The position numbers and the translations under genes were made by a program. A stretch of 63,911 bases of DNA, filler included, from Collodictyon triciliatum (Eukaryota): NCBI GenBank assembly GCA_043381765.1. It is 13 parts of 13 records of this genome, joined end to end, with 100 filler letters (N's around TTAATTAATTAA, not from the genome) between each part and the next. Parts side by side here need not be neighbours in the genome. Positions count along the whole stretch, not along the records: positions 26,026 to 31,126 come from JBHJMP010005485.1; 12 more parts are not named here. One strand, given 5' to 3'. Position 1 is the stretch's first letter; every line of letters starts with the position of its first letter. The notes beneath the pieces are model-generated. The model did no database searches. It saw nothing but the letters and a program-made list of their open reading frames with translations, and was not told where the DNA came from. Shown one piece after another: positions 26,026 through 62,213 of this stretch.

Positions 26026-26120
<95 letters not shown>

Positions 26121-26179
26121 TGATTAAATATATCTAGTTATGACTATATACTCTTTTCTTTTTCTTTTTTGAACTTTAG

Positions 26180-26849
26180 AATTTATATCAATACATTCAA
26201 GATGAACATAGAGTCAAGTTAAAGAAAGATATGGACGTGTCTTCATGGTAGTTACTTTTTGGGAGTATATCTCTCTTCACAGTTTTATCATAGACCATTA
26301 GTTAATTTTATTTATTTTTTGCACATATGAGGCATATTTTATTATTATTATTATTTTTTTTTTTTGCTTTTGTTTTTTATTTTGTAAAAAGAAAGGAGAT
26401 TAAAACTAACTTGAAGAATCTAGGACTCTAGTTGATATGTCCCCAGATGTACCGCAGCAAGATAATTGTAACGATTGTGGTGTTTTTGCCTGTAAATTTG
26501 CCGAGCGTGTCAGCATGAACGAACCTCTAATTTTTAGTCAGGTAATCATGTCCATCCGCTGAACGACATAACAACTGTATTTTATCAACCCGTGGTTGGG
26601 CTTTGTAGAACGTCACGATGATATCATCCTTTCATGTCATAAAAGAGTCGACAATTCCGTGTCACGCATTTAATGATTTCGTACTCACTCATACTTATTC
26701 CTTTTTGTTTTGCTTTGTTTTGCTTTGTTCTATTTTATTTTATTCTCTGCTGCATAATCCCATACCAGCGAGATATTCAGAATATCCGAAAACTCATGCA
26801 GTTTCAAATCATTACCGGAGTTCTGCTGAACTCCCCGTTGAATGACTAG
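26180..26849 (+). CDS. Ulp1/SENP (peptidase C48) protease, 3' exons only
   Basis: Exons about 26180-26247 (LYQYIQDEHR), 26424-26541 (VPQQDNCNDCGVFACKFAE..FSQ) and 26769-26849 (RDIQNIRKLM...*). Confidence 0.88.
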
Positions 26850-26885
26850 TGAATAAAAGTATATTCTGCTCTACACACTGATGCA

Positions 26886-27020
26886 CGTTTATTTTCAGTA
26901 CTAGAAAGGGTATACCAATCGAAAATTTTGGTAAACCTGGTGCGCTAGTATCCAAGGTCTCATCACTTTTTTCACAAAGATAGTCCAGTGGTGAAGGCTG
27001 TCAGGAAAGACCCAACAGCC
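26886..27020 (-). ncRNA. Putative Fanzor omegaRNA, copy A (scaffold ending at CTAG 26901, guide from the flank)
   Basis: Overlaps and follows the Fanzor stop codon. The 29-nt block 26933-26961 is identical to 52647-52675. Several hairpins are conserved between copies. Boundaries are inferred. Confidence 0.7.
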
Positions 27021-28906
27021 TGTTTTTTAGATGAAAATGTATGCATATTTTGAAGGATAAAAAGAACTTTGTTGAGTATATTTTTAGCGCTGTTAAAGTC
27101 CCTTGTCAAGAATACACTTTGTTTGCTTTCTGAGCGATTCCATTCTTTACATATGAGACATCTATACAACACTTTTTTTGAATTTCCTTTCGGTCTCATA
27201 TATCCCAGTTTCTTTTCGCAGTTGCGGCACATCTTGGAGGTTCTAAATTCATTTACACTAACTGTTTCAAAGCGATAGGATTATATTTTTTTGTAATCCT
27301 CTTCCGATTGTTGGCATAAAATGTTTCATCTGACATTTTCTGCTACAGTTTTCATACGCCAGTACAACATCCTTGCCAAATGTCTTTTCGATTCGGTCCA
27401 TAAACAATTGTTCACTTCTTTTTGTATTAACATACTGTCTCCATCTCATCTTTCGAAAAGTTATCATGTTCATAAAATCTGGATAATTCTATCTGGAATC
27501 TTGATTTCATATACATGTTTTCGAAATTTTTCATAATCGACGGTACATGAATTATGTTTACTCAGTTCTGTCTCTAAATCGATTAAAGATACTCTTGACG
27601 TCTCAAACTGCTAATTCTCTTCGAAAGTTATGACACCAAAAAAAAACAGCACTTTGTAAACCTGTTGCTATGCATATCCCTAAAGCATTGCACTTTTTTT
27701 TCTTGCGCAAGAGTATTTTGTGATTTTTTCGAGATTTGCTATCGTGTCTTCTTTGGTGAGCCGTGTAACGTAATTTCTTACCTGTCCCATCCACATGTAA
27801 ACCAAATTAAACTTGCCTGCGTCCACTCCAACTATTTTTTTTTTTTTTACGCTAATAAAGATAACTGCTCTTCGGAAAGTTCATCTATATAAACATATTT
27901 TTGGGTCTTTTGATTATATTTGGATTTTGGATTTGAAATACCTTTCTTTTTAAACAATAATGACACCGCCAAGCTGTCTGTTTGTATCATATGTTTAAAA
28001 ATGTAGTCTGTTTGATGAAAGACCCTCTTCTTCATTTCAAATAAGTCATCCCATAGTGTCTCTTTGCATCCTGATACATTCTTCAGTAGTGATGCTTTTT
28101 CAGTTGATACTAATATATCTATCAAACATGCGATATCTAGAGTAATATGACATGGAAAATTGTTAGTTCTTTTAGGGATTGGTTGATACTTTTTGATTCC
28201 AATGTCCTCAAAAATGTGATTCATGTAAATCAGACATGGAATGTACTTATTTGGATTGACTTTGACGTCATATTCGATACCATTTACAATATCGCTGGGA
28301 ATGATATGATGCAAATGCGTTATAGCCCATTCTTTGTATTGTTCCGATATTTCGAGATTCTTGAAGATGGCTTTTTTTTAACTTTCGTAACTCTGCCTTT
28401 TTAATAGCTTCTGTAACATTCTCATCTTTAGGAACTGTTTGATTTATAAAGCGCAGTAACCTCTTTACAAAATGTTCCTTAATGTTATTATGATAAGCTG
28501 TTAACATTTGCTTCGCCAAGTACGGTAATAGTGAGACAGTCTAACCAACGGAAAACGTTCTTCTCGGGACAAAATATATCGAAAATCATTGAGATAAAAA
28601 GTTATAAAGTCTTTACTCAAACCTGGATGGTTTAAAATTGTGGATATCTTGTGAAACAAGTCCGAGTGTCTTTAAAGCTTCAAAAAAAAACATTTCATCG
28701 ATTGTTGGGACTTGTGATTTCAATATGTAACATCTTGCAAACAGATAAGTGTCGGTAACCAAATTATGACACAATAAAACCGTATAATTGATTTTGTCAT
28801 AGTCATCCGTATTCTTTACAATCAACTTTAGAGATATTTTCACATTTGGATAGTCTGGTTTTACAGACTTTGGATTCTCAGACTCAAGACGGTTTCTTTT
28901 CTTTAT
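26972..28906 (-). pseudogene. Fanzor1 (TnpB-like RuvC nuclease), frameshifted, copy A
   Basis: Joined frames give VKISLKLIVKN, MLTAYHNNIKEHFVKRLLRFIN, YQPIPKRTN, HMIQTDSLAVSLLF, RuvC-I IVGVDAGK, RuvC-II VNEFRTSKMC, zinc finger CRNC/CLIC and RuvC-III TRDFNSAKNI. Confidence 0.92.
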
Positions 28907-28986
28907 CTGAAAGTCTTTGTTTTACTTTTTCCTTTAGAAAACTACCGAGTTTTCAATTGTAATAAGACTTTAGTCATTCCAAGTCA

Positions 28987-29830
28987 TTTTTTTCCCCCTT
29001 TGTTCGATTCAAAGGACGAGGTTATGCCTACAAAGGGCAAGATAGGTCGTACGATAGAGCAAACGCGAGTAGGAGAAGACACTACCGTGGAGAGGGTAGC
29101 ACTGGAAAGAAGTCAGTGATAGCGAGCTGGTCAGGTGGGCATCCCAACTGGTTGATTGGCTGCGTGGGTAGCAGGGGTTGGATATGCTGTGAGATATCTT
29201 TCGACATATTCCCACATCTCTCTTCGCTTGCGGTCACAGTAGCGAAGAATGCGAGCGTGTTTCAGCAGGCTGTTCAGGAAACTGTATTGCACGAGGCTTT
29301 CCAGCCTGGATATATTGATTTCTCGTTCGGGTCGAATCATTAGAGCGATAAAATGCACGCACACTCCATAAGGACTACAGCATATGTCCCCTTGTGACTG
29401 TCCAGAGTATTCTAGAGTCATAGGCCATTTGGTATTGTGCACCAAACAGGATGTCAGACGCGCTGAGTCGATTGGGAGCATAATCAAGCTCAGAGAGTAT
29501 CTTGTGGGTAGATTCTGACACTTTTGGAGCCAGAGCACTTCACAAATGTGTGTTCGATAGAGGTCGTCTCCACTATGGCACATGGTGCATTCTGGAGAGG
29601 TCGTTGCTGCCTGGACTACGCGCGCACCTATCCACGGCTCTCTGTTGGAGATATTGAGAAGTAGGGCGCGGTGTTTCGGGAGTAACTGAGATATGCGGGC
29701 TTGCTTCCAGTTTTTGACTATCGGCGGGTCTATAATGCCTATAGTTTCGGCCCAACAACTCATCTTCTCCGGTTTGTAGGGATTCAGGCTGATGATTTTA
29801 TATCGAAATAGCTTGGAATATGAAATGGCA
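28987..29830 (-). mobile_element. 5'-truncated non-LTR retrotransposon (LINE) nested in Fanzor element copy A
   Basis: Absent from copy B. Encodes a zf-RVT-like C-terminus (EPWIG..ECTMCHSGDDLYRTHIC). The 3' UTR matches 62078-62213 and ends in a stem-loop plus A tail. Confidence 0.8.
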
Positions 29831-31030
29831 AGAATCAATTTAGGTGAAATTAAGCATCTACCGAGACTCTCAAATTGTGCGCATTGTGGCAAACTGACAC
29901 ACGAAGTTTTTTTTTTTTTGTATGTGATTTGAGGCGAAACGCTGAGAGTCGATTCGGCGTGTTCGAAAGGACGGTCGCATAGCGATTGTGACTGAAAGTC
30001 AACAAACCGGCCCCAACCAACATGATCACCACCGCAAGTGTGGATAGTATACTTTTTTTGAAATGCATGTTTGGTGGCAGGTTTATAGGGTTGGGTTCTG
30101 TCTGGGCGAGGGAAAGGCTTGTTTGTAATTTTTGAATTTGTGAATTAATATTACAGAATGGAAAATAAAAATAAAATCTAAATTAATTACAGGAATATAA
30201 TGAGATTATTAATTATTTTGTAACTTCATTACATACTAATCATATTTTTATACTATTCAGGTTGTTTCTTGGATTCATCAAAGCTCCTGCTTTTCTCAAT
30301 CCAGATTTAATTCGATGATTGTCTGTGTAATAAATTCTTATATATATATATATATGGGTACACTTTCGTTGTATAAAAAGTGTTGTGCTTGAAAGGGATA
30401 AAAACAAGTTCGTCACAACCTTTGTAATGAAGTTTATCCATTTACAGGCTGAATGAGACCGAAGAAGAGAAGAAAAATAGAAAAGAAAAATAGAAAAGAA
30501 AAATAGAAAAGAAAAATAGAAAAGAAAAAAGAAAAAAGAAAAAAGAAAAAAGAAAAAAGAAAAAGAAAAAGAAAAAATTAAAAAGAAAAATAAATGAATC
30601 AGAGTAACTGATATTGAGCACTATATTCATACTTATCTTGCTCCCTGTGGGTTGATGGCTACAGCATGAATCCTACTAACCCTTTCTCCAGTAGCCTCTT
30701 TTTCTCTCGCTACCCGTGGGACGACGGCTTCAGCTCGCTCCGTCTTTTTTTCCCATTATTATATGTTTCAATTTCCTCGATGCGTCTTATTCATATGTTG
30801 TTGCACTCACAGGTCGGTGGCAGCTGGCGTCTGGATCGTCGGTGTGTCTCGGTGCATAACTTGTGTTGCAAAGGATGTGGTAAAGTGACCTTTTTGCTCC
30901 TTGGGTCGGCTGCGTCGGCTTTCTCGGTTTGCGAACGGTCAGTAGGCATTCCATGGAGCAGGGCTGTGTTGCTGGTCTCCTGGAAGGCGGTCTCGTACTT
31001 CTCAGGATCGCTCATTTCGATCGCTTGCGT

Positions 31031-31126
<96 letters not shown>

Positions 31127-51890: not shown

Positions 51891-52596
51891 TACTCTGTAT
51901 AATAATTTTTAATTTTTAATTTTTAATTTTTAATTTTTAATTTTTAATTTTTAATTTTTAATTTTTAATTTTTAATTTTTAATTTTTAATTTTTAATTTT
52001 NNNNNNNNNNNNNNNNNNNNNNNNNNNNNNNNNNNNNNNNNNNNTTAATTAATTAANNNNNNNNNNNNNNNNNNNNNNNNNNNNNNNNNNNNNNNNNNNN
52101 GAGTGAGTGAGTGAGTGAGTGAGTGAGTGAGTGAGTGAGTGAGTGAGTGAGTGAGTGAGTGAGTGAGTGAGTGAGTGAGTGAGAGAGTGAGAGAGTGAGA
52201 GAGAGAGAGAGAGAGTGGGAGAGTGAGTGAGTGAGTGAGTGACTCAGTGAGTGAGTGACTGAGTGAGTGAGTGAGACAGTGAGACAGTGAGAGTGAGTGA
52301 GTGGGTGAGTGGGTGAGTGAGTGAGAGTGATGAAGTGAGTGGGTGAGTGAGTGAGTGGATGAGTGAGTGAAAAAAAATAATCAACAAGCCGCGGAGAAGG
52401 AACCCACACGACACAGAGCAAGCGAGGGAATGCACCAACTACAAGTTGCCAGGAAACTGTGTTTGTGGCGATGTTTAGATCGATCAGGGTTCCACGTAAC
52501 ATAACGAAATCGACAAGTGCGGAAGTTATAAATTTTATTCCGCATCACCTGCTAAGGGCAAAATAATCAGAACATGTATATTCTAAATGCTATGTA

Positions 52597-52735
52597 GTTT
52601 ATTTATTATAACTAGCAAGAAGGGGTTGCCAATCTTTTCGATTGAGAAACCTGGTGCGCTAGTATCCAAGGTCTCTCCACTTTTTTAAACAAAGATTGTG
52701 AAGCGGTGAAGGCTGCCTGGAAAGACCCAAAAGCC
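52597..52735 (-). ncRNA. Putative Fanzor omegaRNA, copy B
   Basis: Same invariant 29-nt hairpin and covarying subterminal hairpin as copy A. Scaffold end inferred at CTAG 52612-52615. Confidence 0.7.
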
Positions 52736-54618
52736 TATTTTTTTAGAGGAAGATGTATGCATTTTTTGAAGGGTTAAATGAACTTTCTTGAGTATATTGT
52801 TAGCCCTGTTAAAGTCCCTTGTCAAGAATATACTTTGTTTGCTTTCTGGGCGATGGCATTCTTTACATATGACACATCTATACACCTTTTTTTGAATTTC
52901 CTTTCAGTCATATATTCCAGTTCTTTTTCGCAGTTACAACACATCTTGGAGGTTCTAAATTCATTTACACTTACTGTTTCAAACCGTTTGGATAGTATTT
53001 TTCGTAATCCTCTTCCGTTTATTGCCATAAAATGGTTTCGTCGGGGATTTTCTGCTCCAGTCTCCTTACGCCAGTACAACATCCTTGCCAAATGCCTTTT
53101 CGATTCGGTCCATAAACAATTTTCACTTCTTTTTGTATTAACATACCATCTCCGTCTCATCTTTCGAAAAGTTACTTGTTTATAAAATCTGGATAATTCT
53201 ACCTGGAATCTTGATTTCATTGATACATATTCTCGAAATTTTTCATAATCGACCGCGCATGAATTATGTTTACTCAGTTTTGTCTCCAAATCGATTAAAG
53301 ATACTCTTGATGTCTCAAACTGCTGATTCTCTTCAAAAGTCAGGGATAAAAGAAACGGCGCTTTGTAATCTGTTGCCATGCATATCCCTAAAGCATTGCA
53401 CTTTTTTTTCTTGCGCAAGAGTATTTTGTGACTTTAAAGAGATTTGCTATCATGTCTTCTTTGGTGTGCCATGTAACGTAATTTCTTACCTGTCTCATAC
53501 ACCATGTAAACCAAATGAAACTTGCCTGCGTCCACTCAAACTATTATTTTTTTTCGCTGATAAAGATAACTGCTCTTCGGAAAGTACATCTATATAAACA
53601 TATTCTTTGGGTTTTATTATTATTATTGATTTTTGAATTTGAGATACCTTTCTTTTCATATAATAATGACACCGCTAAGGCGTTTGATTGTATCATGTAT
53701 TTGAAATTGTAGTCTGTTTGATGAAAGACCCTCTTCTTCATTTCAAAGAACTCATCTCATAGGGTCTCTTTGCGTCTTTATATATTCTTCAATAATAATG
53801 TTTTTCCAGATAATAATAATATATATCAAACATGCAGTATCTGGAGTAATATGACATGGTATATTATTAGTTCTTTAGATATTGGTTGAAACTGTTTGGT
53901 TCCAATGTCCTCAAAAAATGCGATTCATGTAAATCGCACATGGAATGTACATGTTTGGATTGACTTTGACGTCATATTCGATACCTTTTACAATATCGCT
54001 GGGAATGATATGATGCAAATGCATTATAACCCATTCTTTGTATTGTTCCGGTATTTCGAGTTTCTTGAAGATGGCTCTTTTTTTTAACTTTCGTAACCCT
54101 GCCTTTTTAATAGCTTCCGTCATATTCTGATCCTTAGGTACTGTTTTATTTATAAAGCGCAGTAACATCTCTACAAAATGTTCCTTAATGTTAATATGAT
54201 AAACTGTAAGCATTTGCTTTGCCAAGTACAGTAATGAATGAGACAGCCTAACCAACGGAACGCATTCTTCTCGGGACAAAAGGAATCGAAAATCATTGGG
54301 ATAAAAATTCATCATGTCATCTCTCATTTCCGGATGTTTTAATCTTGCGAGTCTATCTTGTGAAACTATTCCAACTTTCTTTAAAGCTTACAAAAAAATC
54401 TTTTCATCGATTGTTGGGAGTTGTTGCGAGTTCAGTATATAACATCTTGCAGACAGATAAGTGTCGGTAACCAAATCATGACATAATAAAACCGTATCGT
54501 TGATTTTGTAATAGTCATCCGGATTCTTTACAATCGACTTTAGAGATGTTTTCACATTTCGATAATGTGGTTTTACAGACTTTAGATTCTCAGACTAAAG
54601 ACGATTTCTTTTCTTTAT
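52685..54618 (-). pseudogene. Fanzor1 (TnpB-like RuvC nuclease), frameshifted with stops, copy B
   Basis: VKTSLKSIVKN, YLAKQMLTVYHINIKEHF, YMIQSNALAVSLL, V*VDAGK, VNEFRTSKMCCNC, RCVICKEC, TRDFNRANNI. Confidence 0.92.
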
Positions 54619-55017
54619 CTGAAAGTCTTTGCTTTACTTTTTCCTTTAGAAAACTGCCGAGTTTTTAATTTTAATAAAACTTTAGTCAATTAGTCAATCT
54701 AATAAAAACACAACTGCACAAAATCAATTATGTAAAATTAAGCATTTACCGAGACTCTCAAAATGTGCGCTTTGTGGCAAACAGACACACAAAGTTTTTT
54801 AAAATAAGTGATTTGAGACAAAACGCTGCGAGCCGATTCGGCGAGTTCGAAAGGACAGCCGTATAGCCATTGCGACTGAAAGTCAACATATCGTCCCCAA
54901 ACAACATGATTACCGCCGCAAGTGTGGATAGTATGCTTTTTCGAAATGCATGTTTAGTGGCAGGTTAAAGGGGGGATTCTGTCTGGGCGAAGGCAAGGGC
55001 TTGTTTATAGTTTTTGA

Positions 55018-55043
55018 TTTTTTTTCCTTTATTCGATTCAAAG
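55018..55043 (-). mobile_element. 26-bp LINE 3' remnant with 11-bp target-site duplication, nested in copy B
   Basis: atagtttttga at 55007-55017 and 55044-55054. The homologous site in copy A (about 30125-30140) is empty. Confidence 0.85.
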
Positions 55044-57494
55044 ATAGTTTTTGAATTTTAATTTTAATATTACATATATGGGAAATAAAATATAAATTAA
55101 TTCAGGAATAGAATGATAGATTAAGTATTTTTTTAACCTTACTATATATACTGATTGTACTATTATATTATTCAGGTTGCTTCTTAGATTCATCAAAGCT
55201 CCTGCTTTTGCCAACCCAGAAATAACTCGATGGTTGTCTGTGCAATAAATCGATGTATATGAGAACACTTTCGTTTTATAAAAAGTGTTTTGCCTTGAAA
55301 TGGATAAAACCAAGTTCGTCACAACCTTTGCAATGAAGTTTATCCATTTACAGGCTGAATGAAACCGAAGAAAATAGAGACCGAAGAAAAAAAAAGGAAA
55401 GACAAATGAACCAAAGCAACTAATACTGAGCGATATAATCATAATTATCTTGCTACCCGTGAGTTGATAGCCTGAGCTTGAGGCTTATCAGCCTTTCTTC
55501 GGGTGCTTCTTGCTCTCTTTGATTCCTTACGCGGATCACTTGGTCATGGAGCCATTCATCTCTTTGCTGGAATATCTCTCTTTGCCGTATTTGTCTATCA
55601 TAAACATTCATCTTTCCTGGTCTGCCTCTTCTTTCTTCAGGCATCTCATTTTGCAGCCGCTTTTCTTATGTTTTATCCAAATATTTGGGCACCTTATCGT
55701 CGCTCACGGTGGCTGGACACGATGAAATGGCCCTTTTGCTTATCTTCTTGCTCCGTCAAATCGAACTAAATATTTTTCTATTTATATTAATATGAAATTC
55801 GATATTCAACCTTCTTAACGCTTCATTTATTATCATAAAAGCCGTCAATAAAATACCTCAACCATTTCAAATGACATAAAATTTATTTACTGTCTTTTAC
55901 GTAATTGTTTTAACGCACTTCATGAGAGGAATATTTGACTTCACTTGATTCATCATCTTACGCATAATCTTAATAACAAAGAATAAATGATATATGCCGT
56001 ATTGTTTCATGGGTTGCAATAGTGTATGTTTTGAGATCTCGCTATGATAGCAGGCTAGGAGCGCTGGAGTCGTCCATGCCACGGAGTTTTCCTCATTGCG
56101 CATTGAACGCTTATGCCCCGAACGCGAATGGCTGTCATACCGCTTCTACCTTGTTCATCAAATAGCTCGCTCCGTCTTAATATCGGTTTGTTATACTCAT
56201 GGGTCGGTGTGTTTCGGTGCGTAACCTGTATTGTAAGGGATCTTGTCAAGTGGCCTTTTCGCTCTCTGGGTTGGCTGTGTCGGCCTTCTCGGTTTGCGTA
56301 CAATCAGTAGGCGTTCATTGGGGCAGGGCTGTGGCGCTGGTCTCGTCCTTCTCAGGATCTCTCTTTTCGATCGCTTCCTTGTTTTTTTCCAGCTTTAGAA
56401 TATGGTGGGTTGTGTGAAGAAGGAAAGAACGCCAGCGTAATAGTATTATTTTCTGGAGAATGTGTCTTTCTTTCTCCCCCAGTGTTTATTATTTCTCAGC
56501 AAAAGGAGACTTTTTTTCTTTTTCATTATGTTTTTTTTTATTGTTTCTTCAACTCTGTATCTCTCTGTCGGGGTGATCACACGTTTATTCGCAGCGCATA
56601 GTAAAATAAAAAATAAAAAAAATAAAAAAATCTGGCCTGGGCTCGAACTTTCTAATATTTCCTACACAGAAACGCACAAACAGTTCAAGTTCTACGAAAT
56701 GATATCAATATATACTTAGTTAATAATTAATTGATGGTAACTAATATTAAGCTGGCCAAAGTTGGAGGCTGAAGAGTTTCTTGTGAGCCCGTGCAAACGC
56801 AGCCAACACGTAACGAAAGTGCTGACGAAGGGACGGTATCCTTGTGGCACTTGGACGTTTGTTAAAAAGCGACATGTGGGAAATGACAATTGCTTTTCAG
56901 GATGCAGAGAGCGTTTCAAGAAAAGACCCGTCGGGTTGTGTTCGTCCTGGGTAAGGTTGTCATTTCGTTTGATTGCGAATAATATTTTTTCCAGGACGAT
57001 TTTCTTGCTTGGCGTTGGGCTGTATTTTTTTTTTTTTTGCTCTATTTCTTTGACATTTTCTTTTCGGTTTTGTTTGTTTGCTTTAGTAAGTTATTGTTAT
57101 TAGTATTATTAGTATTATTATTAGTATTATTATTAGTATTATTATTAGTATTATTATTAGTATTATTATTAGTATTATTATTAGTATTATTATTAGTNNN
57201 NNNNNNNNNNNNNNNNNNNNNNNNNNNNNNNNNNNNNNNNNTTAATTAATTAANNNNNNNNNNNNNNNNNNNNNNNNNNNNNNNNNNNNNNNNNNNNTTT
57301 TGTTTTGTTTTTGCTTTTTGCTTTTTGCTTTTTGCTTTTTGCTTTTTGCTTTTTGCTTTTTGCTTTTTGCTTTTTGCTTTTTGCTTTTTGCTTTTTGCAA
57401 TCGCCTTGTCATTCATATTTTGGTTCCTTTTAGCTCCTTTTCAAAAATATGGACATAGTTGTGTATCTAGATAGGCATTTAGAGACTCTAGTCT

Positions 57495-62077: not shown

Positions 62078-62213
62078 TCACTGATTCTTTTTCCGGTGCT
62101 ACCCTCTCCACGGTAGCCTTCTCCTACTCGCGTTTGCTCTCTCCCGTGTGCTCCCATCCCACCCCTTTGTATGGCATAACCTCGCTACACTTTGAATCGA
62201 ATAAAGGAAAAAA
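62078..62213 (+). mobile_element. About 135-bp 3' fragment of the same LINE family
   Basis: Homologous to the reverse complement of 28987-29120 (gtgctaccctctccacggtag..ttctcctactcgcgtttgctct..ggcataacctcg..tttgaatcgaa). Confidence 0.85.

Follow-up and report, generated by a model that had tools for sequence, protein, structure and literature searches.

Does a 63,911-nt stretch of the Collodictyon triciliatum genome assembly (GCA_043381765.1), hereafter referred to as the window, carry a working Fanzor1 nuclease gene or the remains of one? Fanzor1 proteins are eukaryotic, transposon-borne relatives of the TnpB and Cas12 RNA-guided DNA cutters, and an earlier note on this DNA had proposed a Fanzor1 element present in two diverged copies. 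The window consists of about a dozen pieces of ~5.1 kb joined by spacers (44 N + TTAATTAATTAA + 44 N); copy A lies on the piece at 26026–31126 (JBHJMP010005485.1) and copy B on that at 52101–57197. The DNA is AT-rich (GC content of 0.29–0.46 per 2 kb), and microsatellites are abundant throughout. We found both copies of the gene to be broken. Very probably, A (26933–31038) and B (52647–56388) were inserted as members of a single dispersed repeat family, which carried a Fanzor1 gene as cargo, and decayed independently of each other.

The minus-strand stop-to-stop open reading frames (ORFs) at 26972–28921 were compared, by tblastn and by frameshift-aware alignment, with P0004, an intact 648-amino acid (aa) relative that serves as the reference for residue numbers throughout. 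The ORFs fall in three frames and are colinear with P0004; from 28906 down to 26990, copy A aligns with residues 1–640, and 388 of the 632 aligned residues (61%) are identical, so that the fragments do join into a protein of ~640 aa as had been claimed. The frame is broken by nine frameshifts (28645, 28530, 28378, 27849, 27793, 27644, 27511, 27465 and 27281) and by a single in-frame stop codon (TAG, 27611–27613), and the start position (28904–28906) reads ATA, compared with ATG in relatives. Copy B likewise shows nine frameshifts; it has seven stop codons (TAG, TAA and TGA), and its start position (54616–54618) also reads ATA. Given these frameshifts, stops and start positions, neither copy holds an open reading frame, and both are dead, molecular fossils without function. 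The idea of a working RNA-guided nuclease element had to be given up: both copies are pseudogenes, with no detectable omegaRNA, terminal inverted repeat (TIR) or transposase.

The codons of the active site persist within these broken frames. The D, E and D codons of copy A are located exactly where the earlier note had placed them (Table 1), and copy B has kept its own (D, 53530–53532; E, 52960–52962; D, 52814–52816). D364, E555 and D604 as well as the zinc-finger cysteines are invariant across the eight intact relatives that make up our profile and alignment A1. An invariant glycine (G521, in the motif YGDW) occupies the canonical RuvC-II place, and E555 is located 34 residues downstream, before TSK-CxxC. 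This matches the rearranged site that Jiang et al. (passages of PMC10530073) describe for Fanzors, in which G or P stands at the canonical RuvC-II position and another glutamate, further downstream, adjoins the TNB domain; a glutamate placed between the fifth beta strand and TNB agrees with the SpuFz1 triad D383/E541/D606 (passages of PMC11423790). In the alignment, E555 corresponds to the relocated RuvC-II glutamate that Fanzors typically have. The D-to-E spacing amounts to 191 residues, or to 158 after subtraction of a 33-residue insert, equal to the 158 of SpuFz1. P0004 and the two window copies (27600–27700 and 53330–53430, both on the minus strand) share this 33-residue (99-nt) segment, situated between RuvC-I and E, which is not found in the other six aligned relatives. 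In copy A it contains the sole in-frame stop and one frameshift. None of the contig joints listed (see below) skips it.

The zinc finger, claimed earlier as CxxC/CxxC, stood in its first half. Copy A keeps the first pair, C562/C565 (27218–27229), and C587 (27149–27151); C590 is changed to W (TGG, 27140–27142), and the finger of copy A is therefore one ligand short. The earlier count was probably based on a 'CLIC' pattern that uses a non-conserved cysteine, the second pair of the family being C587/C590. In copy A, YENC stands in place of the invariant YGDW motif. Copy B retains all four cysteines and GDW. Of 73 family-invariant residues, 61 are kept in copy A and 58 in copy B.

With A1, we searched all six-frame ORFs of the window that reach 20 aa or more (1979 ORFs). 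Fifteen pieces matched at E ≤ 0.01 (best E, 4.9e-53), all on the minus strand, with eight in 26975–28921, seven in 52688–54594 and none outside the two copies. Against the PDB, A1 matched PpFz1 (E 1.4e-64), SpuFz1 (2.5e-64) and GtFz1 (2.2e-51) and nothing else; no TnpB, Cas12 or Fanzor2 chain was found at E ≤ 0.01. Given that the profile matches solely these three solved Fanzor1 proteins, the assignment to Fanzor1, already made in the earlier note, is sound. P0004 by itself matched the Fanzor1 chains 9cer (E 2.1e-28), 9cf0 (2.7e-24) and 8gkh (3.7e-23). A search with P0003, a 176-aa ORF of copy A, yielded P0004 (E 2.9e-56, 54% identity) and also P0005 and P0006 among longer proteins, and one with P0002, a 203-aa ORF of copy B, yielded, at E ≤ 0.001, 463 representatives, among which lengths of 600–700 aa are frequent. 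P0004–P0006 bear the precomputed Pfam label PF26935.1, which is missing from the Pfam release that we scanned and is therefore left unnamed here.

By blastn, the core of copy A (26933–28976) aligned with that of copy B (52647–54688) at 87.4% identity over 2060 nt, and two shorter upstream blocks also aligned (29833–30504 with 54722–55407; 30838–31038 with 56203–56388; Table 1). The recurrence noted earlier was thus borne out, with the limits then given (26901–31031 and 52612–56390) lying within ~35 nt of those from blastn. The shared unit spans ~3.7–4.1 kb, and the flanks of the two copies are unlike. Fourteen public runs carried a small share of the stretch in one run search, which listed no RNA run for it; public runs were aligned to it as contigs at ≥80% likeness, a procedure from which neither expression level nor strand can be read. 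On a 4.3-kb stretch, four runs gave 586, 633, 155 and 114 contig pieces, and those of run X1 ranged from at least 99% alike (67 pieces) to less than 90% (170 pieces). Summed contig depth, which is not a measure of copy number, was 0–8 on the unique flank at 26130–26849 and, over 26994–28865, 80–306 in X1 and 51–361 in X2. So many distinct, diverged contigs indicate a many-copy repeat, in agreement with the multi-copy family suggested earlier: two runs together contribute 586 + 633 pieces, almost none of which falls on the unique flank. Most contigs also lack the additional base at 27464 whose presence breaks the frame of copy A. Because it is dispersed and present in many copies, the repeat is or was mobile.

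No frameshift or stop site is common to the two copies. Their differences are distributed over codon positions 1, 2 and 3 as 84, 67 and 87 across 615 codons, with a ratio of nonsynonymous to synonymous rates (dN/dS) of 0.69. From this near-even spread and the dN/dS value, neutral decay after inactivation accounts for the larger part of the 12.6% by which the two copies diverge. An alternative genetic code was considered and rejected, given that TAG, TAA and TGA in copy B align to seven different residue types. Introns were also rejected as the source of the frame breaks, the shifts being just 1–2 nt without an extra segment. Only three of the nine frameshifts of copy A fall in long homopolymers, so that simple homopolymer errors do not explain the breaks either.

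To place the copies among their relatives, we kept the best 80 loci (L001–L080) of a metagenome contig scan. These loci carry uninterrupted relatives that are 36–47% identical to P0004 over the full length, and 21 of the 80 have a DDE_3 + HTH_28 transposase gene upstream in divergent orientation. TIRs of 31–39 nt were found in all ten loci tested, the last nucleotides after the gene recurring in inverted form beyond the transposase, and the elements so delimited measure 3.3–6.3 kb. A 147-nt 3' block that ends in GGTGTAA is common to 53 loci; it starts 65 nt ahead of the stop codon's end and extends 81 nt past that end, and the sequences beyond the block are unrelated. Compensatory changes affect 12 of its 24 predicted pairs. 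A covariance model of the block, R1, recovered 22 of 27 held-out loci, some of them near-duplicates of training rows, and the five misses were loci without 3' DNA. Complete elements include L032:3009-6903 and L008:2331-6936, in which the right TIR is the last 31–39 nt of the 3' RNA block.

A FastTree phylogeny of 87 rows (midpoint root only, SH-like supports) was built from the fetched proteins of 560–800 aa minus P0158 and P0161, plus 12 locus translations. Copies A and B pair with support 100; P0004 joins the pair, also with support 100, and the stem of this group measures 0.55. Its sister is L001/L002/P0009 (support 91), within a 21-row clade (support 99) that includes transposase-bearing loci. 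The metagenomic Tc1/mariner/IS630-type Fanzor1 elements therefore belong to the same well-supported clade as the window copies, and they are complete, with DDE_3 transposase, TIRs and 3' RNA, whereas none of these parts is detectable in the window copies. The comparison suggests that the window lineage lost or replaced the transposase/TIR/3' RNA module. It is more informative than the window copies themselves, as the relatives present a clean, covariation-backed mariner-type transposon in which the right TIR doubles as the 3' terminus of the guide-RNA scaffold of Fanzor.

Searches for the same parts in the window gave the following results. No DDE_3 transposase was found in the window, whether by tblastn with three proteins (E > 1) or with a ten-sequence profile (best E, 2.1), and Pfam scans of the ORFs of the two copies detected no serine recombinase or TnpA-like ORF. 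A repeat search revealed no TIR in the two pieces, and a sensitive alignment of the 3' terminus with the upstream part gave scores of 23 and 22, against shuffle means of ~19 and maxima of 28–31. Secure homology between A and B stops at 26933, 39 nt beyond the copy A stop codon; further on, to ~26888, the score of 24 did not rise above shuffles (mean 18.3, sd 2.2, maximum 27). No Rfam family reached its gathering score in the whole window. The copies may nevertheless hold a diverged omegaRNA.

The breaks might in principle be artefacts, with the gene intact or nearly so, its interruptions being sequencing or assembly errors or short introns, and copy A a live Fanzor1. Three of the nine frameshifts of copy A (28378, 27849 and 27644) do fall in homopolymer runs of 8–9 bases, its one in-frame stop lies inside the lineage-specific insert, and its catalytic codons are retained. 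The other six frameshifts are outside homopolymers, however, and shifts of 1–2 nt that bring no extra segment cannot be introns. Copy A also combines the ATA start with C590W, YENC in place of YGDW and changes at 12 of the 73 invariant residues, copy B has its seven stops of three kinds at seven different residue types, and the substitutions between the copies are near-even over codon positions. We therefore regard a live copy A as highly improbable. A more serious contender, although still unlikely, holds that the repeat is a non-autonomous relic and spread once its Fanzor gene was already dead, so that Fanzor was passive cargo when A and B arose. ATA is common to both copies, while at base 28904 most family contigs have the ATG form (nine contigs of X1, accounting for all depth; 13 of X2, for 226.7 of a depth of 251; five of X4, for all depth). 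The dN/dS value, the even codon-position spread and the lack of a transposase in either copy fit the same picture. Against it, a single shared transition could occur twice, a dN/dS below 1 leaves room for early selection, and the lack of any shared frameshift or stop means that the common ancestor was otherwise open.

The relatives raise the further question of whether the copies stem from pieces of giant-virus DNA that entered the host genome, instead of belonging to a cellular transposon family. Many intact relatives reside on AT-rich, gene-dense metagenome contigs of 30–258 kb, next to genes for topoisomerase IA, rhodopsin, XPG nuclease, collagen and pentapeptide repeats and DEAD helicase. 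Such a set of neighbours is typical of giant viruses. Fanzor1 (Fz1) has also been reported from giant viruses, according to passages of PMC10432273. Yet the unit shared by A and B is just ~3.7–4.1 kb with differing flanks, an intron-bearing Ulp1-type protease exon lies 370 nt from copy A, and Pfam scans found no other virus-like ORFs in the two pieces. Diverged contig pieces in the hundreds favour amplification within the host, and the tree places A, B and P0004 on a long branch of their own, outside the clade of virus-like contigs. A viral origin thus appears very unlikely, and independent decay of insertions of a dispersed, Fanzor1-carrying repeat family accounts best for the two copies.

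Several observations weigh against this explanation. Single window ORFs match the solved Fanzor1 chains weakly (P0003, E 0.0012–0.02; P0002, E 0.14), and Pfam on single window ORFs gives nothing for Fanzor beyond one sub-threshold match to Cas12f1-like_TNB (PF07282; E 2.6e-5, 24.7 bits, cut-off 26.3); because these direct matches are weak, the assignment runs via the intermediate relatives. Model R1 gives no score above 3.2 bits at the 3' end of either copy, even when its filters are switched off, and in a two-sequence consensus fold of A and B none of the 46 predicted pairs is compensatory. The shared ATA could result from parallel G-to-A changes instead of common descent. Finally, we infer the RNA-guided function of the family wholly from homology.

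An intact ancestor would have encoded a protein of ~640–650 aa with a WED/REC lobe, a RuvC/TNB lobe and a Fanzor-type D/E/D site, and its basic, KKR-rich NH2-terminal stretch would have resembled a nuclear localisation signal. Homology with SpuFz1, GtFz1 and PpFz1 suggests that this protein would have bound an omegaRNA, the transcript of the element's 3' end, and would then have cut DNA matching a flank-derived guide beside a target-adjacent motif (TAM); such guided cutting may aid transposon persistence. Bracketing by the sister clades suggests that the ancestor probably resided within a mariner-type transposon. The more recent common ancestor of A and B may already have been non-coding and copied in trans, as both carry ATA where most other contigs of the family have ATG, a point that turns on one base. 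For characterised Fanzor1 proteins, passages of PMC10432273 and PMC11423790 describe an omegaRNA of ~75–150 nt and cutting of TAM-flanked, guide-matched DNA.

Among known systems, SpuFz1 (PDB 8gkh and 9ceu–9cez) provides the fullest comparison, with A1 positions 7–602 aligned to chain residues 399–1027. The order of WED/REC, RuvC and TNB is the same, and D364/E555/D604 of the window family are equivalent to the SpuFz1 triad as given in passages of PMC11423790. Unlike SpuFz1, the window copies are broken, their lineage carries the 33-residue insert, and no omegaRNA or element ends were found. GtFz1 (9cer) and PpFz1 (9cf0) are the best single-sequence matches of P0004, at low identity. In GtFz1 too, glycine takes the canonical RuvC-II position (GWGNW, compared with YGDW), and in both proteins the glutamate precedes TS..C..C as it does in the window family. 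The third catalytic D is replaced by N in GtFz1 (passages of PMC11423790), whereas the window family keeps D. TnpB of IS200/IS605 (ISDra2) and Fanzor2 have RuvC and the zinc-finger TNB in common with the family, and their RNA-guided mechanism would serve as a model for the ancestor. In contrast to them, the window family has a glycine in place of the RuvC-II glutamate, is ~250 aa longer and possesses a large NH2-terminal WED/REC region.

The suggestion of an uncatalogued lineage held in a weak sense, insofar as no near-identical protein was found in the collections searched; the copies form one clade among hundreds of ordinary Fanzor1 relatives. In a collection of 5.8 billion proteins, none of at least 309 aa was closer than 54–61% identity. 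A near-length search added one protein of 291 aa at 56% identity as well as fragments of 137 aa (90%) and 143 aa (82%), which cover about one-third of the query. Passages of PMC10432273, PMC10530073 and PMC10711439 already report Fanzor1 in protists and giant viruses, its links to Mariner and other transposons, and multi-copy decay. Our literature search, in which supplementary host tables were not included, found nothing linking Fanzor with Collodictyon or with names beginning 'Diphyl'. The copies are ordinary, since mobile genes of this kind usually end in decay. With them, the large Fanzor1 family gains one host lineage and one diverged branch, and little rests on the copies themselves. A bolder view would have A, B and P0004 as a separate Fanzor1 sub-lineage that parted from the mariner-type module and rides on an unrecognised ~4-kb repeat with an upstream part of 1.2–1.7 kb, present in many copies in a deep-branching protist, with some members perhaps intact and transcribed; we consider this view rather improbable. 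The use in practice is modest: if intact members do exist, they or P0004 would be another candidate for a compact eukaryotic RNA-guided nuclease.

Table 1 Coordinates of the two Fanzor1 copies and of the sequence blocks associated with them in the window.
Feature	Position	Strand	Remarks
Core repeat block, copy A	26933..28976	-	Fanzor1 pseudogene plus ~39 nt of 3' flank past the stop codon
Fanzor1 pseudogene, copy A	26972..28906	-	P0004 residues 1-640; frame-ending stop at 26972-26974
RuvC-I D codon (GAC)	27821..27823	-	Motif IVGVDAGK; D364 of P0004; column invariant in A1
E codon (GAA) before zinc finger	27248..27250	-	Motif VNEFRTSK; E555 of P0004
RuvC-III D codon (GAC)	27098..27100	-	Motif TRDFNSAKNI; D604 of P0004
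TNB zinc-finger region, copy A	27140..27229	-	Pairs C562/C565 and C587/C590
A-only insertion, 856 nt	28977..29832	-	Between Fanzor gene start and block 2; absent in copy B
Upstream shared block 2	29833..30504	-	77.5% to 54722-55407
Upstream shared block 3	30838..31038	-	77.6% to 56203-56388; then poly(T) to piece end
Core repeat block, copy B	52647..54688	-	Pseudogene from 54618 down to 52739, P0004 residues 1-629
Upstream part of copy B	54722..56388	-	Blocks 2 and 3; ~0.8 kb between them not shared with A

Contigs of X1, X2 and X3 join 28976 straight to 29833, which indicates that other copies are without the insertion of copy A and that block 2 adjoins the gene in them. The insertion holds most of a stop-free frame of 337 codons (ORF 29131–30144, minus strand), in which no Pfam match was found; the nearest atlas clusters were zf-RVT (score 0.95–0.96), a weak resemblance (recognition 1836). 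Depth over the insertion is highest at its 3' end, reaching ~1700 at 29010–29300, and 28988–29119 recurs in the window at 62213–62078 with 78% identity. The insertion is probably a 5'-truncated fragment of a long interspersed nuclear element (LINE), on the minus strand, from a very abundant family.

The upstream 1.2–1.7 kb of the copies contain no Pfam domain above cut-off. Given that the poly(T) tract runs to the end of the piece, the 5' limit of the copy A repeat is undefined. A segment found in copy B but not in A (55453–55665, minus strand) resembles STPRs repeats weakly (E 4.4e-5; 24.2 bits, under the 27-bit cut-off) and is probably unrelated, low-complexity coding-like sequence.

On the other side of copy A, the last exons of a gene for an Ulp1-type cysteine protease are located at 26130–26565 on the plus strand (Peptidase_C48, E 4e-8, 33.8 bits, above cut-off), convergent with copy A and 370 nt from its 3' end. 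Contigs of X1 and X2 skip 26247–26422, with GT..AG at the ends and a depth of 0 inside. This segment looks like a spliced intron, and the skip hints that X1 and X2 are derived from RNA.

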